Both the position numbers and the translations under genes were made by a program. Below, one piece after another: positions 337 to 38,107 of a stretch of DNA of 42,746 nucleotides (its first letter is position 1; each line of letters opens with the position of its first letter). The stretch lies in NCBI GenBank assembly GCA_016235675.1, contig JACRJN010000162.1, positions 1 to 42,746 on the forward strand. Direction: 5' to 3'. The notes beneath the pieces are model-generated. The model did not search any database. It was not told the origin of the DNA and worked only from the letters and a program-made list of their open reading frames with translations. Origin of the DNA: Candidatus Schekmanbacteria bacterium. Lineage in GTDB: Bacteria; SZUA-182.

Positions 337-648
337 CTAAATGGCTTTGATCCTTAGAGGTACGGTTTGTTCTTCTGTTTCGTCTGTTTCTTCTTCATCG
401 GTTTCATCTTCTAAAAGCGTTCCGTTTTCTCGCAGCTTATCCAATCGGTCAAGCAATTCCTTTTCCCTGGCATCGAATTCTTCTTCGGTAATCTGCTTGG
501 TTTCCAGCATCATGTAAAGCTCGTTTAGCCGGACGGTGATGTTGCCCGCCTCCTGGGCAAGCTCCTGTGCCGCCGCATCATGTATATTGCGAAAAACCCA
601 GAAAAGACTGCGGGTCGGAAATAATAGAATGTCGTCAATAAGAAACAT
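337..648 (-). CDS. gvpG: gas vesicle protein GvpG-like
   Basis: 103 aa. The N-terminus MFLIDDILLFP..LFWVF and the size resemble the GvpG family. It is the last gene of the minus-strand gvp cluster, directly downstream of a gvpF/L homolog. Confidence 0.55.
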   Translation of the reverse strand: MFLIDDILLFPTRSLFWVFRNIHDAAAQELAQEAGNITVRLNELYMMLETKQITEEEFDAREKELLDRLDKLRENGTLLEDETDEEETDETEEQTVPLRIKAI

Positions 649-787: not shown

Positions 788-1534
788 CTAAACCTTAAGG
801 TCTATTTCAACAAAGTTGTGCGGCGCCCAGGGGCCGTTATAGTCAAAGGCAAAGTTATCGTCAAACAACCCGGCGGCCTTAAAAACGCCGGCCTCAAAAT
901 CACTCTGGGCATTTTTGGCAATCAAACAGGCCAGATTCATTATCTGATGTTCGTTATGCGGCGGATTGCGTTTAATTTCAAAACAGAGAGGATTCAATAT
1001 CTCTTCCACCATGCCGGTAAAGAATAGCCTGTCTTCTTCAAGAATACGGGCAAACATCTGTCCCAATTCGATTTTCTCTCCCTGGGAAGGTTCGCGGTTA
1101 ACCCCAAAAACCCGGTCGCGTTCAGAACGCATTTCAGGATGAGTCTGCACAAAATAATCAAAAAGGTTAGGGGCGTCCAAACTAACGCGCAACCCCATTT
1201 CCACTTTGTTTTCAACCCGTTTAAGCTGAGCCAGGAAAACCCCCTGGTTCAAAGAAAGAATTTTCAAAATCCCGTCAGAGCTGTCTGCAATGACGCCAAA
1301 AGACATGGGCAAAACAGTGCCTTGCGCCATTAAACGTTTGAGGACTTCCTGATGGGCGGCGATATTGCGCCGTTCCGGACGTATCTTCTGGTTGGGAACA
1401 TCGCTCACCAGGGCGGCCATTTTCCCGTCGGAAACGCTGTAAACATCGCTGCCGTTAATACCAAAAGCGCCATATGTGCGCCCTTTAGCTTCGGCTACAA
1501 TACAATACAAGTATCTTCCTGCATTTTTTCCCAT
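788..1534 (-). CDS. gvpF: gas vesicle protein GvpF/GvpL family
   Basis: 248 aa. N-terminal YLYCIV motif and C-terminal GPWAPHNF motif are typical of GvpF/L. It is a paralog of the ORFs at 5614-6309 and 6315-7112. Confidence 0.8.
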   Translation of the reverse strand: MGKNAGRYLYCIVAEAKGRTYGAFGINGSDVYSVSDGKMAALVSDVPNQKIRPERRNIAAHQEVLKRLMAQGTVLPMSFGVIADSSDGILKILSLNQGVFLAQLKRVENKVEMGLRVSLDAPNLFDYFVQTHPEMRSERDRVFGVNREPSQGEKIELGQMFARILEEDRLFFTGMVEEILNPLCFEIKRNPPHNEHQIMNLACLIAKNAQSDFEAGVFKAAGLFDDNFAFDYNGPWAPHNFVEIDLKV

Positions 1535-2611: not shown

Positions 2612-2938
2612 TTAGTACTTAATCTTGATGCCACCCGTATTTAAGCGAGGCTGAGGCATTATGACCGGAACATCGGATGGATTAGCGTCTTTTTGCTTGG
2701 CTAACACCTTCAATAGTCTGGCCTTTTGAACCTCGATTTCTTGAAAGCGGGCATCTATATTCTTCACTCGCTGTAGGGCGCTTTCTTTTTCCTTGCCCCG
2801 CCGAACCTTCTCCAGTTCCAGGTAGCTAAGCTTAAGATGTGTTCTATAGGGAGTGGCTTCCTGATCGACCCTGCCAGAATGAGTACGGATGTCCTGTAGT
2901 CCCCGTATATTTTGTATGTTAGTTCTGGGGATAGCCAT
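2612..2938 (-). CDS. hypothetical coiled-coil protein in gvp cluster
   Basis: 108 aa, basic with a charged helical stretch. Begins 12 nt downstream of the gvpN stop on the same strand. No family recognised. Confidence 0.4.
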   Translation of the reverse strand: MAIPRTNIQNIRGLQDIRTHSGRVDQEATPYRTHLKLSYLELEKVRRGKEKESALQRVKNIDARFQEIEVQKARLLKVLAKQKDANPSDVPVIMPQPRLNTGGIKIKY

Positions 2939-2950
2939 AGCTTGCTCCGG

Positions 2951-3973
2951 TTATATGCAGGCTGGTTGCGCTGCTTGGTTTGTTTTTTGTGGCTTGGGTG
3001 ATTTGCCGATGTTAGCGACATTTGGCTTACAACTTTGCTGGATTATCTCGTTTATCTTTTGCAACATTAACGACTTACCATCGTGGGTAACCTTGGCTGT
3101 GTTCATGCTGAGAACATCATGGCAGACCCGCTGGAAGATGGGATCGTTCCGCTGGGCATGTCCCCCCAGGTGGGTCAGAATCCTGCCGATGGCAATACAG
3201 GCGCGGATGGTTGGATGGTGGTTGTTCACCCCGAAGTCGCGCAGTTTACTTACCACATCTACGACAACCTCCGCCTCTGACCTTGGAAGGCCCGATTTGG
3301 CCATAGTAATCTCAATCCCCGTTTCCTGATCATAGTGGCCAAGCTGGATGGTAATAAGCCGGTCCATCAAGGCATCCTGGGTTTTATGCACCCCGGCATA
3401 TTCCTCCGGATTGGAGGTGAAAATAGCCCTGAACTTCGGATGAACTTGCAAATAACCCTCTCCCAGGCGGCGCAGCTTCGGCAAATTGAGAATCTTCTCC
3501 TCCAGCACACTCAACAACACATTATTGGCTTCCGGCCGCGAACGGGTAAACTCGTCATAGATAACTGTGTCCCCATTCTGACAGGCCATGGTAAGCCGAT
3601 TGTCCACCCACAGACTCTTCATTTCCTCTTCGGTTTTCAGTACCGAGTGGATGAAATTATCGATGAGTTTATGCTTGCGATAACCGGCATCGCGACCCAC
3701 CAGATCGGAACTGCCGAACTCATCATCCCCATGGATGAGGGTTACCGGCCGGCCGCGTTTGGCGGCCACATGAAAGGCCAGAGTAGTTTTTCCCGTGCCT
3801 GCCGGTCCGGCAAAGTGTACCGGATAGCCCACCTCGAGATAAGCCAGGGCACGCTCTGTTATCTCCTGGATATAAGGCGTGTTGACAAACTCCTCGCCGG
3901 CCTCGGGGGTAATGTTGTCAGCGTTGGGCTGGATTCTTTCCATGGACGTATTCTTTAAGTTTTGGCTATTCAT
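2951..3973 (-). CDS. gvpN: gas vesicle protein GvpN (AAA+ MoxR-like ATPase)
   Basis: Walker A motif GPAGTGKTT and overall GvpN/CbbQ-like sequence. Its ATG lies 3 nt after the stop of the upstream zinc-finger gene. Has a C-terminal extension of roughly 60 aa. Confidence 0.85.
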   Translation of the reverse strand: MNSQNLKNTSMERIQPNADNITPEAGEEFVNTPYIQEITERALAYLEVGYPVHFAGPAGTGKTTLAFHVAAKRGRPVTLIHGDDEFGSSDLVGRDAGYRKHKLIDNFIHSVLKTEEEMKSLWVDNRLTMACQNGDTVIYDEFTRSRPEANNVLLSVLEEKILNLPKLRRLGEGYLQVHPKFRAIFTSNPEEYAGVHKTQDALMDRLITIQLGHYDQETGIEITMAKSGLPRSEAEVVVDVVSKLRDFGVNNHHPTIRACIAIGRILTHLGGHAQRNDPIFQRVCHDVLSMNTAKVTHDGKSLMLQKINEIIQQSCKPNVANIGKSPKPQKTNQAAQPACI

Positions 3974-3976
3974 TGA

Positions 3977-4360
3977 TTATTTACCCCTTTCAGATTCATT
4001 GTTACCGGTAATCCTTCCCCGACCATGACATTTAAGACAAGCCATAGCCATAGCCGAGCTATCGTCCCCCGTCCCCCGGCACTCCGGACAGATAACAGTT
4101 GGTTCGGGCAGCGCGGACACAACACCCTTACCATTGCAAACGTTACAGGTAAAGGTCTTAATGGCTCCCGTGCCGCGGCAGTGCGCGCAGGCCTCATAAG
4201 GCACCTGTACCTGCACTAAGCCCTTGCCATTGCAAACGCAACAGTTGGAAAGCGATGACATAACATCGAAGGGGTCTTTCCCCTTGCCTTTACAAAAAGC
4301 ACAACTAACCTGTAACATCTTTGGCTTCTTTTTTCTTTTTCCGATTAGCGCCTCAGGCAT
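3977..4360 (-). CDS. DnaJ CR-type zinc-finger protein (6x CxxCxGxG), no J domain
   Basis: 127 aa with six CxxCxGxG motifs (CAFCKGKG, CVCNGKG, CAHCRGTG, CNVCNGKG, CPECRGTG, CLKCHGRG), enough for three predicted Zn centres. Lys-rich N-terminus. Translationally coupled to gvpN. Confidence 0.6.
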   Translation of the reverse strand: MPEALIGKRKKKPKMLQVSCAFCKGKGKDPFDVMSSLSNCCVCNGKGLVQVQVPYEACAHCRGTGAIKTFTCNVCNGKGVVSALPEPTVICPECRGTGDDSSAMAMACLKCHGRGRITGNNESERGK

Positions 4361-4408
4361 ATCCTATCCCCTTTTGCCGGTATTATAAAATCGCTACCAA
4401 ACGTTAAA

Positions 4409-4456
4409 GGAGTAGAGACTTTAGTCCCGTAAAAACGAGGCTAAAGCCTCTACTCC
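4409..4456 (-). terminator. long imperfect hairpin between the gvpA module and the zf-gvpN module; possible intra-cluster attenuator
   Basis: ggagtagagactttagtcccg...cgaggctaaagcctctactcc forms a stem of about 18 of 21 bp, flanked by T-rich sequence on both strands. Confidence 0.3.
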
Positions 4457-4527
4457 ATTCTTATTCTTTGATTGCGGAATGGTATTATACTTAATGAGTT
4501 CATAATTTGCGATTTATTATTCAGCAA

Positions 4528-4778
4528 AATTTCAACCTGTATGTTTGCCGTAAAAGTAAAAACCCCGGACTCCATTATTCGTGCCGCTTTTGTGCGGGCG
4601 TTGCCCGCATCACAGGCAGGATGCCTGTGCTACCGGTACGGGCTGCGCCCGCTATTATTTGGTAGCACAGGCATCCTGCCTGTGTTTGGGTTGAGGAACG
4701 AAACTCAAGATTCCCTCGTTCGGTTTTATGTCTCTGTTCCAATTTTTGAAATCACAATTTATGAGCTTTAAAAGTATA
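4528..4778. repeat. left copy of a ~250 bp inverted repeat flanking the gvpA-gvpF-gvpL-hsp20 module
   Basis: Near-identical to the reverse complement of 8140-8405. Contains ggtagcacaggcatcctgcctgtg hairpins. The ORF-track peptides 4472-4771(+) and 8149-8376(-) share the C-terminus ...RNETQDSLVRFYVSVPIFEITIYEL, which is the signature of the inverted repeat. Confidence 0.85.
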
Positions 4779-4780
4779 TG

Positions 4781-5011
4781 TCAAGCAGCTTTGCTTTTAC
4801 CAAAGAAGGCCTGGTAACCACCGGCCATATCAGCACGGACATCAGCCAACATCCCGGAGACATTTTTGCTTCTCTCGGTATTGGCGTTTTGGAAATCGGC
4901 TCGCATCTTAGCCACATTATGCTGTATATCGGCAACAAATGCCTTACGCCCTTCATGTCCAGCTATGATTTCATCGTGTAATCGGTTCATATCATCAGTT
5001 AGATGTCCCAT
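4781..5011 (-). CDS. small helical protein with two ~17-aa repeats, directly downstream of gvpA
   Basis: 76 aa. AFVADIQHNVAKMRADF and GMLADVRADMAGGYQAF align as internal repeats. The position just after gvpA is analogous to gvpC. Confidence 0.4.
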   Translation of the reverse strand: MGHLTDDMNRLHDEIIAGHEGRKAFVADIQHNVAKMRADFQNANTERSKNVSGMLADVRADMAGGYQAFFGKSKAA

Positions 5012-5124
5012 TTTTCTGCTCCTTATTTTCTTAGCCCCCCAAAGAAAGAGTTACCCGGATTCCCTGCCGGGAAAGGTCATTTCTAACCTCTCCCGGCATT
5101 AAGAATCTATAAAATTTGGTTCCG

Positions 5125-5343
5125 TTACGCAGGCATTGCAGCGCTTGCGGTCAAACCGATAGCTTCGGCATACTTCAGATAGGTTTCAACCGAGGCGATA
5201 ACCACTCTGGCTTCAATGGAGAGTAATTCGATTCCCACCAACGAAACTTTCACCCAGGCATCAATTACGATACCTTTGTCCAAGATACGATCAATAACTT
5301 CAGCCAAGCTCGAAGAATCTGTCGACTTTTGAATCTTAGCCAT
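5125..5343 (-). CDS. gvpA: gas vesicle structural protein GvpA
   Basis: 72 aa. [55 protein letters not shown] is near-identical to canonical GvpA. A gggagg RBS is present. Confidence 0.95.
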
Positions 5344-5613
5344 GATGAATACACCTCCCTTTTTTAGGAATTAGGAATTATCGTCAGCGCTGACTTTTTG
5401 TTTTAACATGGTCTGTTTGCCATGTCATTGCAATGCCCATATGTAATGCCAGTATTATGCCATTTTTAGCATGTTTTAGTCATGATGATTTTCAGTGTGT
5501 TTATAAACAACTAGTTAGCTAAATAATTGTAACTTTAATATCCCCCACCAATCAATGTCTGCCACTTGGGATAATATGTAATAATTCCCACACATATATG
5601 GTAATGGATACCC

Positions 5614-6309
5614 CTATATCTGGACAAAATTGTAGGGGGGCCAGGGGCCGCTTAAAAGCAGTTCTCCTGATGCTTGTAGTTTGATTTGGCGGGCAGCGTG
5701 ACAAAACCGCTCAACAGAATTTCCGGGCACCAGAAAATAAAGGGAAATTATCCGTTTATCTTCTGACACACAAAACTCTTGTTTGCTATGCACAAAAAAT
5801 TCGCTCAATTTATGGCAAACCGTTTTCACCAGCAGGTCCCGTTCATGGGCCAGCGGCTCTTCCTGTTGATAGTGTTGCCTCTTGGCAGCCAGGTATGCGT
5901 GTCCGGAACTATAGGTTGTCTCCGAACGTGGATTTTCCTTCTTCACACGGGGGGCATTAGGCAGAAGGAGGCGTATTCCCATTTCCTCGCAACCTGTTAG
6001 TTTTTGGATCAGGGATTTGAATTGTTCGGAATGCGCTTCCAGGAAACGAACAACCTGGGCCTCTTGCGCGAACAATGAACCGTAACGCATCGGTATTACC
6101 GCCCGGTTGTTATGAAAGTAGGTAACCACTTGATTGTAAGCGCAAATCCTTGGTATATCGGGGATCGCTTCCTGAGAATTAATTTGGGATACAGCCGCGC
6201 TTAAACCGCCATGGGCTATATAGAAGACAGGTTCTCCTCCCACCCCCAAAACAGCAGCTTTCCCTGGTTCATCCAGAGTGGAGAAAACACAATACAATAG
6301 ATAATTCAT
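5614..6309 (-). CDS. gvpF: gas vesicle protein GvpF/GvpL family
   Basis: 231 aa. LLYCVF at the N-terminus and the C-terminal SGPWPPYNF motif. Confidence 0.8.
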   Translation of the reverse strand: MNYLLYCVFSTLDEPGKAAVLGVGGEPVFYIAHGGLSAAVSQINSQEAIPDIPRICAYNQVVTYFHNNRAVIPMRYGSLFAQEAQVVRFLEAHSEQFKSLIQKLTGCEEMGIRLLLPNAPRVKKENPRSETTYSSGHAYLAAKRQHYQQEEPLAHERDLLVKTVCHKLSEFFVHSKQEFCVSEDKRIISLYFLVPGNSVERFCHAARQIKLQASGELLLSGPWPPYNFVQI

Positions 6310-6314
6310 ATATT

Positions 6315-7112
6315 TTAAACAGGCATAAGGGAAGCGGAAAAGCTATATGGAGGCCATGGCCCGGAATATTCCAGCGCTATACCCCATTGATTATACTCGG
6401 TATTTAGTTTTTTTATGCACTCACAAAAGTCCATTACCCGGTCTTTCGGAACTAAAAATGCCCAATTCAGCGCCATATCCGTATCTTTGCCGGTTACTTC
6501 GCGGGAAAGCACTTTGCGCTCACAAAAATCCGCCGCATACCCGGACAGATCGGCAGCCAGTTTTTTAGCGCGCTCTTTTAGCCAATGGTTTAATTCCGCA
6601 TCTAAACTGTTTTTTATGCGCTGCTCCTCAAAATAGCGCTTCCCTGGCGCTAATGCAGCCAACTTTTCCCTGTTCTGACTAACCAACAAGGCAAAGAGTT
6701 TTTCTTTGGCCGCCGTTTTATCCAGAAAACCCTTTAGCGACCATTCCTCTTTATCCCGCATTTTTTCCAGAAAGGATAAAATTGCGGGATAGCGTTCTTC
6801 CAATAGTCGGTATAATTTTTCCCGCGCAGAAAAAATAGTGCCAAAGCGCGCCGGGAACAGGGGGGAATGAGCCATTATCTGTTCAAGCACCAATTCATGA
6901 CGGCAAGCCCGGGGAGCCACCCAGTTTAAATCCTGTAATTTAGCCTGTGCCTCCTCGCTGCAAAAATCTTCCAGGCAGACCGTACCTGCCACAGCAACAA
7001 TGTCTTTAACTCTATGTAATATCAGAGGCATTTGCTCTTCCAATCCCGTGCCTTCAAGGTCGGGCAGCAGATCGGAATAGGCAATGCCAAATAAATAGAT
7101 GCCGTTTTGCAT
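6315..7112 (-). CDS. gvpL: gas vesicle protein GvpL/GvpF family
   Basis: C-terminal YSGPWPPYSF motif. The start is moved to the Met of MQNGIYLFGIA because the longer ORF's N-terminus (through 7151) runs into a palindromic repeat at 7120-7207. Confidence 0.75.
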   Translation of the reverse strand: MQNGIYLFGIAYSDLLPDLEGTGLEEQMPLILHRVKDIVAVAGTVCLEDFCSEEAQAKLQDLNWVAPRACRHELVLEQIMAHSPLFPARFGTIFSAREKLYRLLEERYPAILSFLEKMRDKEEWSLKGFLDKTAAKEKLFALLVSQNREKLAALAPGKRYFEEQRIKNSLDAELNHWLKERAKKLAADLSGYAADFCERKVLSREVTGKDTDMALNWAFLVPKDRVMDFCECIKKLNTEYNQWGIALEYSGPWPPYSFSASLMPV

Positions 7113-7119
7113 ATTTTTT

Positions 7120-7207
7120 GATGTTTCGGTGTGTTTCACGCCGAAACCCATAAGGGGGTAACGTTACCCCTTGTTAGTTTCGGCGTGAGGACACGCCGAA
7201 ACATCAG
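7120..7207. repeat. family C triple hairpin (tttcgg[cg]gtg..cac[cg]ccgaaac / gggtaacgttaccc)
   Basis: Copies at 8406-8450, 8508-8529, 9580-9606, 32372-32430 and 32519-32576. Confidence 0.8.
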
Positions 7208-7265
7208 AAGCGTAGTTTCAAGCTTTTTACTCATCCCTCCTCCTTCCGACTTCATCCTGGTGTTT

Positions 7266-7772
7266 TTACTTGTTACACTTAATCTTCGCAATCCCGTTTT
7301 TGCAGGAGACACTTATTTTATCCTCTGTGAAATTCCCCGGCAGGAGTATTTCCTTGCGATACTTTACCTCGCTGTTTTCAGCGTAAATAGTTAGAATATC
7401 ATCCTTAACGCTAAGCCGGATATTTTTGGTCTGTATTCCGGGCATCTCAGCCACCACCAAGACATGATCCTCTTCTTCAAAAACATCCACAATCGGTTCG
7501 CGCACCTCACGAACGATTGATTCACCGCTCGTTTTATCCTTGCGAATATTTCCGAAAGGCTCAACTTTAATCCCGTTTCCCTGCAAGCCGGTTTTAATCG
7601 AAAAACCGAAAACACCCTTAATCGGATTGCACTTTTTATCCTCCAAATTAATTTCACTAACCCTGGAAAAGGCTTCCCCCTTTTCTGCCAGATCGCCAAG
7701 CGCTTCCACCAAATCCGTAAGCCCTTTTAAAATCCCTCCGGCTGGATTTTGCTGTTTTTTCTTCTTAGGCAT
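7266..7772 (-). CDS. Hsp20/alpha-crystallin family protein (gas-vesicle-associated small heat shock protein)
   Basis: The alpha-crystallin domain signature VFEEEDHVLVVAEMPG...LTIYAENS. A gaggagg RBS is present. It is the first gene of the minus-strand cluster. Confidence 0.75.
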   Translation of the reverse strand: MPKKKKQQNPAGGILKGLTDLVEALGDLAEKGEAFSRVSEINLEDKKCNPIKGVFGFSIKTGLQGNGIKVEPFGNIRKDKTSGESIVREVREPIVDVFEEEDHVLVVAEMPGIQTKNIRLSVKDDILTIYAENSEVKYRKEILLPGNFTEDKISVSCKNGIAKIKCNK

Positions 7773-8139
7773 TATCGTTACCTCCTCATCCCTGAGCTAA
7801 CTTATTGACAATCTCCATAATAAGAGTTCTGGAATATTTTTTACACATAGAGGGGTTGGTATGCTTTTTTTGTGCCGCTATAATAAGAAGCTTAACCGGT
7901 AGTAATCCATTTTTCAACCTAAAAGTTACTTTAGTGCCATATAGTGTACTGCACAGGGCAAAAAGACTGGTCGGGAATTTCGGCAATTATTTTTACCGTT
8001 GATGCGGCAGGGGTGGGGAATCCCATTAAACTCGACTAGTACAGCGTCTATTTAGTTTTGACTGGTTGCGCTTATTTTGCATTCCAAATAAAATGGACGA
8101 CGTACTAGTACACGATTTTATAAATAACTAAGATTATTT

Positions 8140-8405
8140 TTTATACTTTTAAAGCTCATAAATTGTGATTTCAAAAATTGGAACAGAGACATAAAAACGA
8201 ACGAGGGAATCCTGGGTTTCGTTCCTCAACCCAAACACAGGCAGGATGCCTGTGCTACCAAGAAAAGACACAGGCAGGACGCCTGTGCTACCAAATAAAA
8301 GCGGGCGCAGCCCGTACCGGTAGCACAGGCATCCTGCCTGTGATGCGGGCAACGCCCGCACAAAAGCGGCACACATAATGGAATCCGGGGGTTTTTACTT
8401 TCCTG
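8140..8405. repeat. right copy of the ~250 bp inverted repeat (with a 33 bp internal duplication)
   Basis: Reverse complement of 4528-4778. Nested inside a larger element bounded by 23 bp terminal inverted repeats at 8108-8133 and 8660-8685. Confidence 0.85.
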
Positions 8406-8529
8406 GATGTTTCGGGTGTGTTCCACACCGAAACCCTAAAGGGCGGCGTGCCGATTGGCAAGGCTCAGGCTGTGGTTGAGATAAGTTCGTTCCCCTTGCC
8501 TGTTTCGGCTTGGAACAAGCCGAAACATC
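8406..8529. repeat. family C hairpins (two copies)
   Basis: gatgtttcgggtgtgttccacaccgaaac and cctgtttcggcttggaacaagccgaaacatc. Confidence 0.75.
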
Positions 8530-8566
8530 AATTTTATCAATCATTGCGTAAGGTGAGTTTTTAAGT

Positions 8567-8632
8567 GTCATTGCGAGCGGAACGAAGCAATCTAAAGTTC
8601 GTGCGTCTGAGATTGCTTCGGCGAGAAGGCTG
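8567..8632. repeat. family D element (gtcattgcgag...gaagcaatct...agattgcttcg)
   Basis: Copies at 27837-27908, 32288-32369 and a diverged copy at 42259-42350. Confidence 0.75.
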
Positions 8633-8686
8633 CTGAGCTATGACAGAATAAACTCAGTTAGTTATAAAATCGTGTACTAGTGTGTA

Positions 8687-8726
8687 AGGTGGACTGATTT
8701 GTCAAGACCAGTCCACCTTATTTTCT
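8687..8726 (+). terminator. orphan rho-independent-terminator-like hairpin
   Basis: aggtggactg-(12 nt loop)-cagtccacct followed by tattttctctc. No plus-strand gene lies upstream of it. Confidence 0.3.
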
Positions 8727-8841
8727 CTCAAGTTTAAATTTTATCATTTTCGTCTTAGAACATTTCTATTTTGGTAAAAGAGGACATTATTACTTTGACA
8801 TGACGGAAATGATTTTTAATTTTAGCTTGTCGTTTTTTGTA

Positions 8842-8870
8842 TTGACAAAAGTAAAACGACATCTTATAAT
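8842..8870 (+). promoter_or_regulatory. consensus sigma70 promoter (TTGACA-17-TATAAT) upstream of nuoE
   Basis: ttgaca at 8842-8847 and tataat at 8865-8870 with a 17 nt spacer, about 240 nt upstream of the nuoE ATG (9113). Confidence 0.55.
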
Positions 8871-8898
8871 CTAAATATCTTTCTAATATGTTGTATAT

Positions 8899-8922
8899 AA
8901 ACAAGTTATAGTTAACTTGTTT
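8899..8922 (+). promoter_or_regulatory. 10-4-10 perfect palindrome (aaacaagtta tagt taacttgttt), candidate operator in the nuoE leader
   Basis: Perfect inverted arms read directly from the sequence, about 30-50 nt downstream of the predicted -10. Confidence 0.4.
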
Positions 8923-9112
8923 GCTTTCCGGTTCCTGGTGGATATTCCGTTAGTCTCTGTTTTTAAACTCTGTTCTAATTTATATTCAATTTCAAAAATA
9001 CCGCTCTCCGTCGGAGAAACTGTATCGCAACACAGCCTCAGAGCGGACATATCATAAACTATTCAAAACTCAAAACTCAAGAACCTGAAACCCTGACCGT
9101 GGTTCAAATGTT

Positions 9113-9577
9113 ATGAATATTCCCCAACCTTTATGGCAGGAAATCGAACAAATAATTGTGTCTTATCCGCAGCCGCAAGGAGCGGTGCTGCCGGCGTTAC
9201 ACAAAATTCAGGAGCGGATGGGCTACCTGGCTGAGGAGGCTTTAGCTCAGATAGCCGGACATCTGCGGATACCGCAAGTGGATTTGTTCGAAATCGCCAC
9301 CTTTTATACCCTGCTTTACACCAGACCGCACGGTGACAACATAATACTGGTTTGTAACAATATCTCCTGTTATATCCTGGATTCGGAAACTATTCTTTCG
9401 ACACTTGAAGACGAACTAAAGATTAAAGCGGGCAATACCACCGCAGACAACAAGTTCACCCTCCAGGCCGTTTCCTGTCTGGGGGCTTGCGACGGAGGGC
9501 CGGTGATGTTGATAAACGACCAACTTTACCCCCATTTGACCGGTGACAAAATCAGACGGATTTTAAAGGAATATTAA
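9113..9577 (+). CDS. nuoE: NADH dehydrogenase subunit E-like (NuoE/HoxE/FdsG, 2Fe-2S thioredoxin-like)
   Basis: Cys motif C..ISC...SCLGACDGGP typical of NuoE. Confidence 0.85.
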   Translation: MNIPQPLWQEIEQIIVSYPQPQGAVLPALHKIQERMGYLAEEALAQIAGHLRIPQVDLFEIATFYTLLYTRPHGDNIILVCNNISCYILDSETILSTLEDELKIKAGNTTADNKFTLQAVSCLGACDGGPVMLINDQLYPHLTGDKIRRILKEY

Positions 9578-9579
9578 GG

Positions 9580-9606
9580 TGTTTCGGTTTGGGGACAAGC
9601 CGAAAC
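9580..9606. repeat. family C hairpin inserted in the nuoE-nuoF intergenic region
   Basis: tgtttcggtttggggacaagccgaaaca. Confidence 0.75.
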
Positions 9607-9652
9607 AAAAACAAAATTACCCATTCCCCATTCCCCATTATCAATTTAATTC

Positions 9653-10960
9653 GTGGAGCATACCTTGCCGCAAACACGGGTCTTACTAAAAAATATCGGT
9701 ACCCCCGATTCCGAAACCCTGGACGGTTATCTGAAGAACGGGGGATACCAGGCGCTAAAAAAAGCCGTGAGTGATTTGACGCCTGAGGAAATAGTGGATT
9801 CGGTAAAACGCTCCGGATTGCGGGGACGGGGCGGAGCCGGATTTCCCGCCGGGATGAAATGGCAGTTCTGTGCCTCAGACCAAGCCTGCCCCAAATACGT
9901 AATCTGTAACGCCGACGAGGGAGAGCCGGGCACCTTCAAAGATCGCATCCTGCTGGAAGAAGACCCGCACGCGGTTCTGGAAGGCATGGCTTTGGCCGGT
10001 TACGCCATCGGGGCCAATCAGGGCTATGTTTACATCCGCGGCGAATATTATAAGGGGGCGCTTTCCCTGGAAAAGGCCGTCACTGAGGCCAATCAGCACC
10101 ATTACCTGGGGCAAAAAATATACGGAACTGATTTTGATTTCAATATCCAGGTTTTCCGGGGGGCGGGGGCTTACATCTGCGGTGAAGAAACGGCGCTTTT
10201 AGACTCTCTGGAAGGCAAGGCGGGACGCTCGCGGATTAAACCGCCTTACCCGGTAAATCAGGGTTTATGGGGCAAACCGACTTGCGTCAACAACGTCGAG
10301 ACCTTAACCAACATTCCCTGGGTTGTCAATAAGGGTGTCGATTGGTATCGCAAGTTCGGGACGGAAGAAAGCCCCGGCACTAAAATCTACTCCTTAAGCG
10401 GTCACGTCAACCACCCCGGCAACTACGAACTGCCGATGGGAGCTACCTTACGGGAGCTTATTTACGAATACGGCGGCGGTATCCGCCAGGGCCGACGGTT
10501 AAAAGCGGTTATGCCCGGAGGGGCTTCCAGCGCCTGTCTGACCGAAAAATCGCTGGATGTCAAAATGGATTTCCATAGCTTAGCGGCTGCCGGTTCCATG
10601 CTGGGGTCGGGAGCGGTCATCGTGATGGATGAAAATACCTGTATGGTGGGCGCGGCACATAATGTAGCCGCTTTTTTCGAGCACGAATCCTGCGGGCGCT
10701 GCACCCCCTGCCGTGAAGGCACCCATTGGATCAAACGGATTCTGGAACGGGTTAAGAATTTTGAGGCTAAAAGCGTAGCGGAAATAGATTTAATCGCCGA
10801 CCTGGGACAGAATATGAGGCTGGGAGCTTTTTGTCCCCTCGGCATGGGAGCACCCAGCGCGGCATTGAGTATAATTCAGCATTTCCGGGATGAGTTTGAA
10901 ACGCACGTTAAGGAAAAGCGGTGTCCGGTAAATATCCCTGCCGTAGTGCCAGGGCTTTAG
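9653..10960 (+). CDS. nuoF: NADH dehydrogenase subunit F-like (NuoF/HoxF/FdsB, FMN/NAD-binding, 4Fe-4S)
   Basis: GLRGRGGAGFPAGMKW motif, Gly-rich NADH-binding site, and C-terminal ESCGRCTPCREG 4Fe-4S motif. Confidence 0.9.
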   Translation: MEHTLPQTRVLLKNIGTPDSETLDGYLKNGGYQALKKAVSDLTPEEIVDSVKRSGLRGRGGAGFPAGMKWQFCASDQACPKYVICNADEGEPGTFKDRILLEEDPHAVLEGMALAGYAIGANQGYVYIRGEYYKGALSLEKAVTEANQHHYLGQKIYGTDFDFNIQVFRGAGAYICGEETALLDSLEGKAGRSRIKPPYPVNQGLWGKPTCVNNVETLTNIPWVVNKGVDWYRKFGTEESPGTKIYSLSGHVNHPGNYELPMGATLRELIYEYGGGIRQGRRLKAVMPGGASSACLTEKSLDVKMDFHSLAAAGSMLGSGAVIVMDENTCMVGAAHNVAAFFEHESCGRCTPCREGTHWIKRILERVKNFEAKSVAEIDLIADLGQNMRLGAFCPLGMGAPSAALSIIQHFRDEFETHVKEKRCPVNIPAVVPGL

Positions 10961-10995
10961 CCCTGGAAATTCAGCCCTAAAGGGCTGAGGCTACG
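10941..10995. repeat. family B palindromic element (ccgtagtgccagggctttagccctggaaattcagccctaaagggctg..ctacg)
   Basis: Copy at 34551-34607. Sits between nuoF and the nuoG-like gene. Confidence 0.8.
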
Positions 10996-15358: not shown

Positions 15359-15766
15359 TCATTTAACAGCGATTATCATTTTTGCCCATTCTATAGCCTG
15401 GCGGGCTATTTCCAATGCTTTGTGAACCTCAGTGTCCTGAAAAGTTTCCCAATGGCCGGGATACCGGGTTTCTACCGCATATGGGGTTAGGTCTGCCGCC
15501 TCATTTGCCCACTCAGGCAGTTGAAGTCCTGCATGTTGGACAATTTCAATCAGGGTTTCTATGTCATGGACAGGTGGAAAGGGAATCTTGTTATACAGCA
15601 TAAACATTTTCAAAACCTTCTCCACTGCCTGTTGTGCATGAAAGCAAACCTGCGCTGCAAGAACCTCTTCCGATTTCAAGCCGAGACGGGCGAAAGCTAA
15701 ATCGCTTTGGGCATGATTAAGCCATTCTTGGGGCGAACCTGCGGGAAACTTAGGCGGCTTTTTCAT
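15359..15766 (-). CDS. HEPN domain protein (toxin of HEPN/MNT pair)
   Basis: 135 aa helical protein. Overlaps the MNT gene by 17 nt. Carries an R-x(n)-H motif (ETRYPGH). Confidence 0.6.
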   Translation of the reverse strand: MKKPPKFPAGSPQEWLNHAQSDLAFARLGLKSEEVLAAQVCFHAQQAVEKVLKMFMLYNKIPFPPVHDIETLIEIVQHAGLQLPEWANEAADLTPYAVETRYPGHWETFQDTEVHKALEIARQAIEWAKMIIAVK

Positions 15767-16109
15767 AAACGGTTTTACCTTCTTTTAAGGCCGAATTATA
15801 AATTAATCCAGGGGTATCTGCCAGATTGTGTAAATCGCTCCGGCGAACGACTATAATGTCCATAGGCATTAAAATCCCTCTCAACGCCCGCCGGACACGC
15901 AACCCTTCCCGACGGCAGTTGCTCACACTGTCAGCTACCACCACCAGAATATCCAGATCGCTATTTATCCCTATTTGTTTGCGCACATATGAACCAAAGA
16001 GAATTACTGAAACCGGCTTGATAATCATCACGATTCTTTTGATTGCAGCCTGGACTTTATCTTCCGTAATTTCCCAGATTTCCATATTTTGCCTCTTTAT
16101 AGCGAACAA
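15750..16109 (-). CDS. nucleotidyltransferase (MNT) domain protein, antitoxin partner of HEPN
   Basis: GSYVRKQIGINSDLDILVV, the classic minimal NTase motif. Confidence 0.8.
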   Translation of the reverse strand: MFAIKRQNMEIWEITEDKVQAAIKRIVMIIKPVSVILFGSYVRKQIGINSDLDILVVVADSVSNCRREGLRVRRALRGILMPMDIIVVRRSDLHNLADTPGLIYNSALKEGKTVYEKAA

Positions 16110-17885: not shown

Positions 17886-18001
17886 CAATACTGGTCACTT
17901 AACGTAGCGCAGACCTTTAGGTCTGCTCCTTCGTTCCCGCCAAAGCCCCACCCCGAAAGCAGGGCTAAAGCCCTGCGCTACGTCTTAAGTAAACAGTATT
18001 G
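17886..18001. repeat. family A element copy
   Basis: About 95% identical to 667-784. Confidence 0.85.
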
Positions 18002-19027: not shown

Positions 19028-19140
19028 GCTAACTTAAACGTAGCGCAGGGCTTTAGCCCTGCTTTCTGACACACATCAAACCCGGTAGCCGGTAGCAGAC
19101 CTAAAGGTCTGCGCTACATTTAAATGCCTTAAGTTAGCGC
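19028..19140. repeat. family A' element copy
   Basis: Matches 1879-1988 and 32431-32514. Confidence 0.85.
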
Positions 19141-29401: not shown

Positions 29402-29599
29402 GAGGTAGTTGCAAAAGTCCCCCGAAGTGTCATTCCCGCAACGATTCCCCGTTTTCACGAGGACAAGTTTGAGCGGGAATCTGGTTTTATCCCCGATAAC
29501 TTCATTCGGGGATGACTGCTTGAAAAACCATATCCGTCCCCGAAGTTTTTATCGGGAATAAAAACGTTCGGGGATGACAGATACTTTTGCAACTACCTC
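29402..29599. repeat. MITE family F with 17 bp terminal inverted repeats (gaggtagttgcaaaagt / acttttgcaactacctc)
   Basis: Internal motifs atcgggaatctggtttt and cattcggggatgacag. Copies at 36345-36470 and 37912-38048. Confidence 0.8.
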
Positions 29600-32430: not shown

Positions 32431-32514
32431 CCCTGCTTTCGGACACTCACCAAACCCGGTAGCCGGTAGCAGACCTAAAGGTCTGCGCTACATATAAATG
32501 CCTTAAGTTAGCGC
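32431..32514. repeat. family A' partial copy
   Basis: caaacccggtagccggtagcagacctaaaggtctgcgctacatataaatgccttaagttagcgc matches 19080-19140. Confidence 0.8.
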
Positions 32515-34442: not shown

Positions 34443-34550
34443 AGTAGATACTCCTGTCGATTTTATGGGCGCAGTTTTGTAGGGTGGGCTGTGCCCACCA
34501 AATTTGCCGGCCTGACATTATTTATACCGGTCAAATAGCAACCAGGAATA

Positions 34551-34607
34551 GCCGTAGTGCCAGGGCTTCAGCCCTGGAAATTCAGCCCTAAAGGGCTGGT
34601 ACTACGG
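34551..34607. repeat. family B palindromic element copy
   Basis: Near-identical to 10941-10995. Confidence 0.8.
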
Positions 34608-36344: not shown

Positions 36345-36470
36345 CTCCCATTTTGTCAGTCCCGAGTGCCGTTATCGGGAATCTGGTTTTTTTAAATCAA
36401 ATCAAATCAACACCAGATCCCCGATAAAGGCATTCGGGGATGACAGTGTGTCTTATCAACTACAATATGA
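36345..36470. repeat. MITE family F copy
   Basis: gttatcgggaatctggttttttt...cattcggggatgacagtgtgtcttatcaactac. Confidence 0.75.
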
Positions 36471-36492
36471 GGTAAAACGCGGCATGGAAATT

Positions 36493-37831: not shown

Positions 37832-38107
37832 GGTAGCACAGGCATCTTGCCTGTGATGTAGGCAACGCCCACACAAAAACGGCACAATTCCTGGAAGTTG
37901 TCAGTTAATATCGTTTTCTAGTTGTCATTCCCAAATGGTGTTATCGGGAATCTGGTTTAACTGCTTGAAAAACCATATCCGTCCCCGAAGTCTTTATCGG
38001 GGATAAAAGCATTCGGGGATGACAGTGTGTCTTATCAACTAGAAAACGATATAAATCGAAAGCTTCCGTGCTATGCCACAACACACAGGCAGGATGCCTG
38101 TGCTACC
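37832..38107. repeat. fragment of the gvp-flanking inverted-repeat family, interrupted by a family F MITE (37912-38048, terminal repeats cgttttctagttg / caactagaaaacg)
   Basis: tggtagcacaggcatcttgcctgtgatgtaggcaacgcccacacaaaaacggcac matches the inverted-repeat interior. cacaggcaggatgcctgtgctacc reappears at 38084-38107. Confidence 0.7.

Follow-up and report, generated by a model that had tools for sequence, protein, structure and literature searches.

Do the long inverted repeats that bracket part of a gas-vesicle (gvp) gene cluster turn that part into a switch, or did they come to lie there as ordinary members of a repeat family? The question is raised by a complete contig of 42,746 nt (hereafter the window) from a metagenome-assembled genome (MAG) of a Candidatus Schekmanbacteria bacterium, binned from a short-read metagenome, in which two inverted arms, IR-L and IR-R, flank a block of five minus-strand genes including gvpA. 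Repetitive extragenic palindromic (REP) sequences combine a conserved GTAG with a short palindromic hairpin and have roles in mRNA stability and termination (PMC3479197), and a REPIN is formed by two inverted REPs that, together with a spacer, make one long hairpin (PMC3337134). Here we report that the two arms are a mosaic repeat of this REP/REPIN type, which is a known kind of element found in an under-studied phylum. Probably they are two copies of a lineage-specific, REP-based intergenic repeat with a REPIN core, whose inverted orientation is incidental.

Anatomy of the inverted arms

The repeat search returned two inverted pairs, 4558-4685 with 8268-8395 (128 nt, 95%) and 4659-4778 with 8142-8261 (120 nt, 98%), and the limits of the arms were set by global alignment of both. 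The resulting parts are as follows.

4553-4778, plus strand: left arm IR-L, 226 nt, located between a small open reading frame (ORF; stop at 4781) and a zinc-finger gene (start at 4360), in a gap of 420 nt
4594-4608, plus strand: second hairpin GCGGGC-GTT-GCCCGC, adjoining the REP; REP and hairpin make a unit of ~55 nt that recurs at 37832-37886
4611-4684: REPIN core of IR-L, with inverted 24-nt REP units at 4611-4634 (minus) and 4661-4684 (plus) and a 26-nt spacer
4779-8141, minus strand: enclosed segment, 3363 nt, with hsp20, gvpL/F, gvpF, gvpA, the small ORF and 369 nt upstream of hsp20
8142-8401, minus strand: right arm IR-R, 260 nt, reverse complement of IR-L, between hsp20 (minus) and nuoE (plus), which diverge from a gap of 1340 nt
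8236-8342: REP triplet core of IR-R, with units at 8236-8259 (minus), 8269-8292 (minus) and 8319-8342 (plus)
8262-8294, minus strand: 33-nt insertion in IR-R, an extra tandem REP unit (GGTAGCACAGGCGTCCTGCCTGTG plus linker)

The original prediction had described near-identical inverted arms of ~250 bp, and the arms are indeed real reverse complements, but the outer limits given for them (4528 and 8405) were up to 25 nt too wide, and 4528-4552 is not repeated. Outside the indels, IR-L and IR-R are ~97% identical, with seven substitutions, one 1-nt indel and one 33-nt insertion, and they have exact blocks of 73 (the longest), 54, 46, 14, 10 and 8 nt in common. The 33-bp internal duplication that had been noticed in the right copy was recovered by the alignment as an extra copy of the 24-nt REP unit with its linker, the extra 24-mer (8269-8292) carrying one mismatch. 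The left repeat is exactly intergenic, as had been proposed, since IR-L ends 2 nt short of the stop codon of the small ORF, and IR-R sits 369 nt upstream of hsp20; the gene content reported for the space between the arms was likewise correct.

From outside to inside, each arm is built of ~40 nt of unique sequence, a small hairpin, the REP doublet with its spacer and ~95 nt of AT-rich sequence, again unique. The 24-nt unit reads CACAGGCAGGATGCCTGTGCTACC and its inverted partner in the arm GGTAGCACAGGCATCCTGCCTGTG, with the layout G-GTAG-CACAGGCA-TCC-TGCCTGTG, so that a 5' GTAG stands at the foot of a short palindromic hairpin with an 8-bp stem and a 3-nt loop. Five copies of this unit lie in the arms and two at 37832-38107, and these seven sites in the window compare with 0.00 in shuffles, thus excluding chance. 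The REP pair of IR-L is 100% complementary and its 24-bp stem is kept in the minimum-energy fold, so that 4611-4684 is an inverted REP pair with a spacer that folds into one long hairpin; the spacer itself carries a small hairpin, CGGGC-TGC-GCCCG. As minus-strand RNA, IR-L folds with -100.8 kcal/mol (z = -7.6 compared to shuffles), and IR-R folds with -116.3 kcal/mol (z = -7.8).

The arms are non-coding. Their ORFs are just read-throughs of the palindromes of 75-99 aa, and the 75-aa ORF, used as a probe, matched none of 5.8 billion proteins. A small ORF (MSLFQFLKSQFMSFKSI...) starting inside the arm was dismissed, as it has no ribosome-binding site and its C-terminus is unlike between the two arms. 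No Rfam family matched anywhere in the window at gathering thresholds, and a permissive Rfam search of both arm regions gave sub-threshold chance hits only (miRNA and snoRNA models; Chlorobi-1 and Chloroflexi-1 at 15 bits). Neither did an arm-specific 26-mer match the JGI metagenomes, where no other copy of the locus was present, nor did the arm match PLSDB plasmids in distant mode.

The ends of the arms carry no terminal inverted repeats, the outer end AAAGTAAAAACCCC and the inner end GCTTTAAAAGTATA not being mutual reverse complements, and there is no target-site duplication, as the flanks (gccgta/tgtcaa for IR-L and tccagg/aaaaat for IR-R) show no direct repeat. Nor is a flanking insertion sequence (IS) encoding a transposase present. 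A classical miniature inverted-repeat transposable element (MITE) and a composite transposon are thereby ruled out, and both Y1-type mobility and a single inverted duplication would agree with the missing terminal repeats and target duplications.

REP-type repeats along the contig and in other genomes

The repeat census and the gene scan both covered one contig of the MAG (42.7 kb). A script found 21 sites, compared to 0.52 in shuffles, at which a perfect hairpin of 7 bp or more lies no further than 5 nt behind a GTAG. Eighteen of them were scored as intergenic, in a window of which ~18% is non-coding, and two of the three scored as coding sit at the generously drawn ends of approximate ORFs. 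Several stem subfamilies were recognized (GCGCAGGGC, GCGCAGACC, GCACAGGCA and GTGCCAGGGC), mostly arranged as inverted doublets, with examples at 741-764, 1890-1966, 10943-10994, 17904-17981, 19040-19117, 32469-32491 and 34479-34577. Altogether, REP/REPIN hairpins fill about half of the larger intergenic gaps of the contig. Within the gvp cluster, hairpin repeats are found in five gaps (649-787, 1535-1998, 4361-4780, 7152-7265 and 7773-9112), four of which hold GTAG-hairpins, while the gap at 7152-7265 holds other palindromic hairpins. Several further hairpin-built mosaic families of 50-155 nt recur in the contig, mostly as direct pairs, and their copies are 63-95% identical compared to ~97% for the arms. 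The Schekmanbacteria MAG thus carries a dense REP/REPIN-like repeat population, extragenic and high in copy number on this contig, in which the arms are the longest and best-preserved pair of REP-based mosaics.

One further element is related to the arms:

37832-38107: 276 nt, bounded by inverted 24-nt REPs at 37832-37855 (plus) and 38084-38107 (minus)

It lies between ybeY and a UPF0102 gene, its right REP overlapping the last codons of ybeY, and it had been taken for a third, fragmentary copy of the arms. This holds for its ends, which match the arms over ~55-65 nt on one side (REP and second hairpin) and over a REP of 24-28 nt on the other, but its interior comes from other repeat families and has repeats of 57-75 nt in common with 29506-29580 and 36423-36479. 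That the arms belong to a dispersed repeat family was nevertheless rightly predicted, their REP core being multi-copy in the contig. No REP-associated tyrosine transposase (RAYT; Y1/HUH transposase) was detected by Pfam among the 40 ORFs of the contig.

The same REP unit also occurs in other genomes. We scanned GTDB, with a single genome for each species, for the exact 24-mer GGTAGCACAGGC(A/G)TC(C/T)TGCCTGTG, which has two degenerate positions, and found it in at least 82 stretches from many phyla; among the matches listed are Verrucomicrobiota (many of them Chthoniobacterales), Cyanobacteria, Aquificaceae, Planctomycetota, Desulfobaccales, Nitrospirota, Parcubacteria and others. By our own estimate, ~0.02 matches would be expected by chance in ~6x10^11 bases. 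The matches have unrelated flanks and several copies per genome, and the neighbouring hairpins often end in CTAC. When the matched stretches were probed by tblastn with an approximate E. coli RAYT sequence, RAYT-like matches were obtained within ~25-400 nt of the 24-mer at seven of the at least 82 loci, and at two of these seven (L019 and L031) Pfam Y1_Tnp scored above its gathering threshold, indicating that the 24-mer behaves as a RAYT-associated REP elsewhere. A literature search for the hairpin sequence itself found no papers.

The same scan led to a separate observation. Five Verrucomicrobiota MAGs, three of them labelled Chthoniobacterales or Candidatus Udaeobacter, encode carB (the large subunit of carbamoyl-phosphate synthase) as an uninterrupted ORF of 1314-1339 aa with an in-frame RAYT-like (Y1 transposase) insertion of ~250 aa. 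The five genes are:

L019, 2773-6759, plus strand: carB with insertion
L031, 2267-6211, minus strand: carB with insertion
L039, 1142-5161, minus strand: carB with insertion
L062, 152-4105, minus strand: carB with insertion
L079, 1181-5185, plus strand: carB with insertion

Pfam, run on L019 and L031, places Y1_Tnp (PF01797) so that it splits the oligomerisation domain CPSase_L_D3, and the REP hairpins flanking the insertion are themselves translated (GSTGILPVGQTGVSPV ... TGETPAGPTGKMPVLP). Our literature search found no earlier report of a RAYT inserted in carB.

Origin and role of the arms

In the reading as two copies of a REP-based mosaic repeat, the core of the arms is a REPIN, that is a doublet (in IR-R a triplet) of units made of a 5' GTAG and a hairpin with an 8-bp stem. 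Being non-autonomous, REPINs would depend for their spread on a single-copy Y1 (RAYT) transposase that works in trans on single-stranded hairpins, with local duplication and recombination elaborating them further. Many intergenic gaps of the genome, five of them in the gvp cluster, would in this way have been filled with REP units, and two near-identical copies would have ended up on either side of the block from hsp20 through gvpL, gvpF and gvpA to the small gene. Since REP hairpins are common in the contig and an inverted arrangement is a one-in-two outcome, two copies flanking a block of genes need no special explanation.

At the level of RNA, IR-L would be the transcribed stretch that follows immediately 3' of the gvpA/small-ORF message, the minus strand being the sense strand of the operon, and judged from its sequence it probably acts as an RNA hairpin between gvpA with the small gene and the accessory genes downstream. 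REPs stabilise upstream mRNA and cause termination (PMC3479197), and the 24-bp REPIN stem of IR-L may therefore serve as a 3' stabiliser and a partial barrier, as REPs do elsewhere, so that the abundant mRNA of the structural genes is uncoupled from the accessory genes downstream, among them the zinc-finger gene and gvpN. The consensus scan placed terminator-like sites in or near the arms at 4639-4651 (plus), 8314-8302 (minus), 8288-8268 (minus) and 4450-4437 (minus), and those that point from outside inward in both arms could damp read-through into the block. The last of the four is located in a further palindromic repeat:

4437-4450, minus strand: hairpin with a T run, resembling a terminator (GAGGCTTTAGCCTC GTTTTTACGG), between the zinc-finger gene and IR-L

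The arms have the length and similarity for RecA to invert the block now and then, or for gene conversion, and either would be a by-product rather than a programmed switch.

Several points weigh against the interpretation as two REP-based mosaic copies. By blast of the contig, the non-REP parts of the arm (~95 nt inner and ~40 nt outer) were seen only in these two copies, so that a dispersed element is demonstrated for the REP core and not for the whole arm, and a single inverted segmental duplication would give an identical picture. The window holds no RAYT gene, and the missing terminal inverted repeats and target duplications fit Y1-type mobility but prove nothing. Furthermore, an arm identity of ~97% over 226 nt exceeds that of the other families and could reflect ongoing gene conversion, and thus real recombination, and the RNA-level roles suggested above come from folds and consensus scans.

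To judge whether the block inverts, we compared its gene order with that of other gvp clusters. The contig carries ordinary chromosomal genes (Pfam: nuoEFG-like, dapF, pdxJ, argH, rnhB, trmD, rimM, ffh and ybeY) and, at its left end, the gvp cluster, which lies wholly on the minus strand and consists of:

7266-7772, minus strand: hsp20 (Pfam HSP20)
6315-7151, minus strand: gvpL/F (Pfam GvpL_GvpF; matches GvpL/GvpF family proteins, PF06386)
5614-6309, minus strand: gvpF (Pfam GvpL_GvpF)
5125-5343, minus strand: gvpA (Pfam Gas_vesicle)
4781-5011, minus strand: small ORF of 76 aa, no Pfam hit
3977-4360, minus strand: DnaJ-type zinc-finger protein
2951-3973, minus strand: gvpN-like AAA_5 ATPase
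2612-2938, minus strand: ORF of 108 aa
1999-2367, minus strand: second zinc-finger protein
788-1534, minus strand: second gvpF
337-648, minus strand: gvpG

Among 5.8 billion proteins, the closest homologues of the GvpL/F encoded at 6315-7151, beyond its own entry, are 54% identical, and there is thus no close relative for comparison. Relatives with a ~50% identical GvpL keep hsp20/gvpH, gvpL, (gvpF), gvpA, ..., gvpN, ..., gvpF and gvpG on a single strand, as in the window, and hence the assembled orientation is the ancestral one; inverted repeats of at least 40 nt were absent from the gvp clusters of these relatives. Three short, independent Logan contigs from run SRR12113407, the only ones that exact-protein look-ups recovered, correspond to parts of the locus, namely L083 to 8131..7177 (100% match), L084 to 8647..9907 and L091 to 6612..5273, where L083 was placed by sequence match and the other two by exact protein match and arithmetic. 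They contain no alternative junction, but none of them crosses an arm, and since several of their ends (9907; 6612 and 5273) fall in plain coding sequence, the break points are uninformative.

A RecA-dependent crossover between the arms might invert 4779-8141 at a biologically meaningful rate, leaving the gvp cluster in two orientations and giving rise to subpopulations that are buoyant, non-buoyant or re-wired. With exact blocks of 73, 54 and 46 nt in arms just 3.4 kb apart, IR-L and IR-R are in principle a substrate for homologous recombination, low-frequency inversion between them is physically possible, and an identity above that of the other repeat families of the contig is what would be expected under sequence exchange. 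On the other hand, the block takes its own upstream region (7773-8141) along, so that inversion would not obviously silence gvpA, and the only orientation seen is the ancestral one. Seven mismatches and two indels should also depress recombination in a mismatch-repair-proficient cell. Inversion at such a rate is therefore unlikely, although it is the best placed of the alternatives to two incidental mosaic copies.

The arms may instead have been selected as an insulator or RNA-processing device, in which inward terminators keep transcription coming from outside away from the block on both strands, or in which the arms of a long primary transcript pair into a stem of ~226 bp that is cut by RNase III, as are the stems flanking rRNA, to free a discrete hsp20-gvpA message. 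The inward-pointing hairpin and T-run sites in both arms (listed above) and minus-strand promoter-like sites upstream of IR-R (8848-8819 and 9080-9051) would suit such a device, and the arms are by construction fully complementary on one strand. However, the sites have weak T runs, promoters and terminators exceed their numbers in shuffles modestly (13 vs. 9.2 and 14 vs. 6.4), and the arrangement is not kept in relatives. Moreover, the two versions conflict, as working inward terminators imply that IR-R is not co-transcribed with the operon. We hence rate a selected device as unlikely, too.

A single inverted segmental duplication, in which one intergenic segment was copied once, inverted, across the block (e.g., by template switching at REP hairpins during replication) and the whole arm is not mobile, would account for the non-REP arm parts occurring twice in the contig and finding no match in the public collections searched, and for arms that have neither terminal inverted repeats nor target-site duplications. 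Against this stands that other REP-centred mosaics share flanks of 50-150 nt between distant copies, suggesting that blocks of this kind have spread, and we find a one-off event improbable.

The arms might also make the block a reversible or mobilisable cassette, which would flip by recombination between them or be excised or moved by a RAYT acting on same-strand REP pairs (4661 plus with 8319 plus; 4611 minus with 8236 minus). We regard this as decidedly improbable; if true, it would provide heritable heterogeneity in buoyancy in an uncultured phylum and the first example of REPINs organising a phase-variable operon.

The dedicated on/off cassette of the original prediction has little in its favour, as the contig encodes no recombinase, REP mosaics are common in it, and the assembled orientation agrees with the gene order of relatives that have no such repeats. 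It had been noted that no recombinase lies between the arms, and indeed no recombinase, invertase or transposase was identified there or anywhere else in the contig. A site-specific recombinase encoded elsewhere could act on sites in the arms, and the rest of the genome lies outside the contig examined. Invertons such as fimS, hin and those of Bacteroides have short repeats of tens of bp as recombinase sites, whereas the arms are a REP mosaic of 226 and 260 nt, and the feature is missing from related gvp clusters. Invertases acting in trans are known, e.g., Mpi of Bacteroides (according to a citation within PMC11602134); even so, a programmed inverton is very improbable. Least probable of all is an assembly artefact, i.e., a mis-join across a collapsed repeat that produced a false orientation or second arm, because, although the bin is a short-read one and no retrieved Logan contig spans an arm, seven differences and two indels with at most 73 exact nt in common allow longer k-mers or read pairs to resolve the arms, L083 matches 7177-8131 at 100%, and the gene order agrees with that of relatives.

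A separate inverted repeat of 35 nt (8104-8138 and 8647-8681; 91% complementary, first 20 nt identical, both outer ends ACTAGT) surrounds IR-R. The 508 nt that it encloses, in the gap from which hsp20 and nuoE diverge, contain IR-R and two additional hairpins, and the motif GTACTAGT occurs four times (three sites), all within 8035-8681 (including 8035-8042), compared to 0.26 expected. The layout of this repeat would suit an inverton, a MITE of 578 bp with CTAG as target duplication, or a pair of operator sites, and its 20-mer had no match in the JGI metagenomes. Of the Logan contigs, L083 stops at 8131 and L084 at 8647, both within the arms of this repeat, but reading these ends as orientation heterogeneity was rejected as unsafe, since the predicted branch points do not coincide with the mismatch positions and other contig ends fall in plain coding sequence.

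Some features of the gene cluster and its surroundings were also recorded. The two zinc-finger proteins are small, with DnaJ-type CXXCXGXG repeats (Pfam DnaJ_CXXCXGXG and Anti-TRAP); both genes are embedded in the gvp cluster, one of them directly upstream of gvpN, and unannotated small ORFs occupy comparable positions in the clusters of two relatives that were inspected. A sigma-54-like motif (TGGCATAATACTGGCA, 5447-5462, minus strand) is located ~100 nt upstream of gvpA, with the right GG/GC spacing and two mismatches to the consensus. In related gvp clusters (L085-L090), a gene for a sigma-54 activator lies immediately upstream of hsp20, whereas this contig has none, and sigma-54 promoter motifs are not enriched over the window (18 sites vs. 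22.8 expected). A perfect sigma-70 consensus promoter (TTGACA-17-TATAAT, 12/12) is present at 8842-8870 on the plus strand, ~240 nt upstream of nuoE. Finally, an adjacent pair of HEPN and nucleotidyltransferase (MNT-type) genes at 15359-16109 (minus strand), amid housekeeping genes, is probably a toxin-antitoxin module.

Comparison with known systems

If the arms are ordinary REP-based repeats, the value of the locus is mainly descriptive, in that a REP/REPIN population has colonised nearly every gap of a gvp cluster in a candidate phylum. Because such repeats densely occupy the gaps, long inverted repeats around operons in genomes of this kind should not be taken for switches without read-level evidence, and the locus is probably vulnerable in assembly and prone to rearrangement. 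Should inversion be demonstrated, it would represent a new route to heterogeneity in buoyancy. The by-products, namely the occurrence of the REP 24-mer across many phyla and the RAYT domain in frame in carB of Chthoniobacterales, may merit more attention than the cassette idea.

The plastid inverted repeat, the FRT repeats of the yeast 2-micron plasmid and copies of IS elements or rRNA operons in bacterial chromosomes are large inverted repeats that flip, whether by general or by dedicated recombination; like the arms, they place hundreds of bp around a unique segment, with the potential to isomerise and to undergo gene conversion. They are longer and identical, or have their own recombinase, whereas the arms described here are short and ~3% diverged, with two indels. 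The gvp loci of Halobacterium and Microcystis are unstable through IS insertions, and there as here mobile DNA or repeats in a gvp cluster could alter buoyancy heritably; however, those are autonomous IS elements that insert or delete, and not an inversion between non-coding repeats as considered for this locus. MITEs (Correia, RUP and cyanobacterial) resemble the arms as short, non-coding, structured, multi-copy, intergenic elements that can supply terminators or promoters, but differ in having terminal inverted repeats and target-site duplications.

Invertons (fimS, hin and Bacteroides promoters; PMC11602134, 10.1101/2023.03.11.532203) likewise have inverted repeats that bracket a segment beside genes where heterogeneity could pay. 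They combine a dedicated invertase and short repeats, usually with a promoter of a few hundred bp, while here repeats of 226-260 nt enclose 3.4 kb with five genes, the contig encodes no invertase and no second orientation is documented.

The closest likeness is to the REP/REPIN-RAYT systems and bacterial interspersed mosaic elements (BIMEs) of Enterobacteria and Pseudomonas (PMC3479197, PMC3337134, PMC3116915). The present repeats differ from these in their host, a Candidatus Schekmanbacteria, in a duplicated unit of 226-260 nt that is much longer than a REPIN and of which ~135 nt is non-REP, and in that no RAYT was seen on the one contig. Furthermore, an identical 24-mer is here found across many phyla, while REPIN-RAYT systems are described in 10.1101/2022.05.22.493013 as mostly transmitted vertically. 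On the other hand, both have a 5' GTAG with a short GC-rich hairpin and an extragenic location, often just after stop codons, in many copies; both form inverted doublets with a spacer that fold into a long hairpin, as well as tandem or alternating arrays with variable linkers; and both are without terminal inverted repeats or target duplications. As in the known systems, the 24-mer of the arms also lies near RAYT-like (Y1 transposase) sequences, in other genomes.

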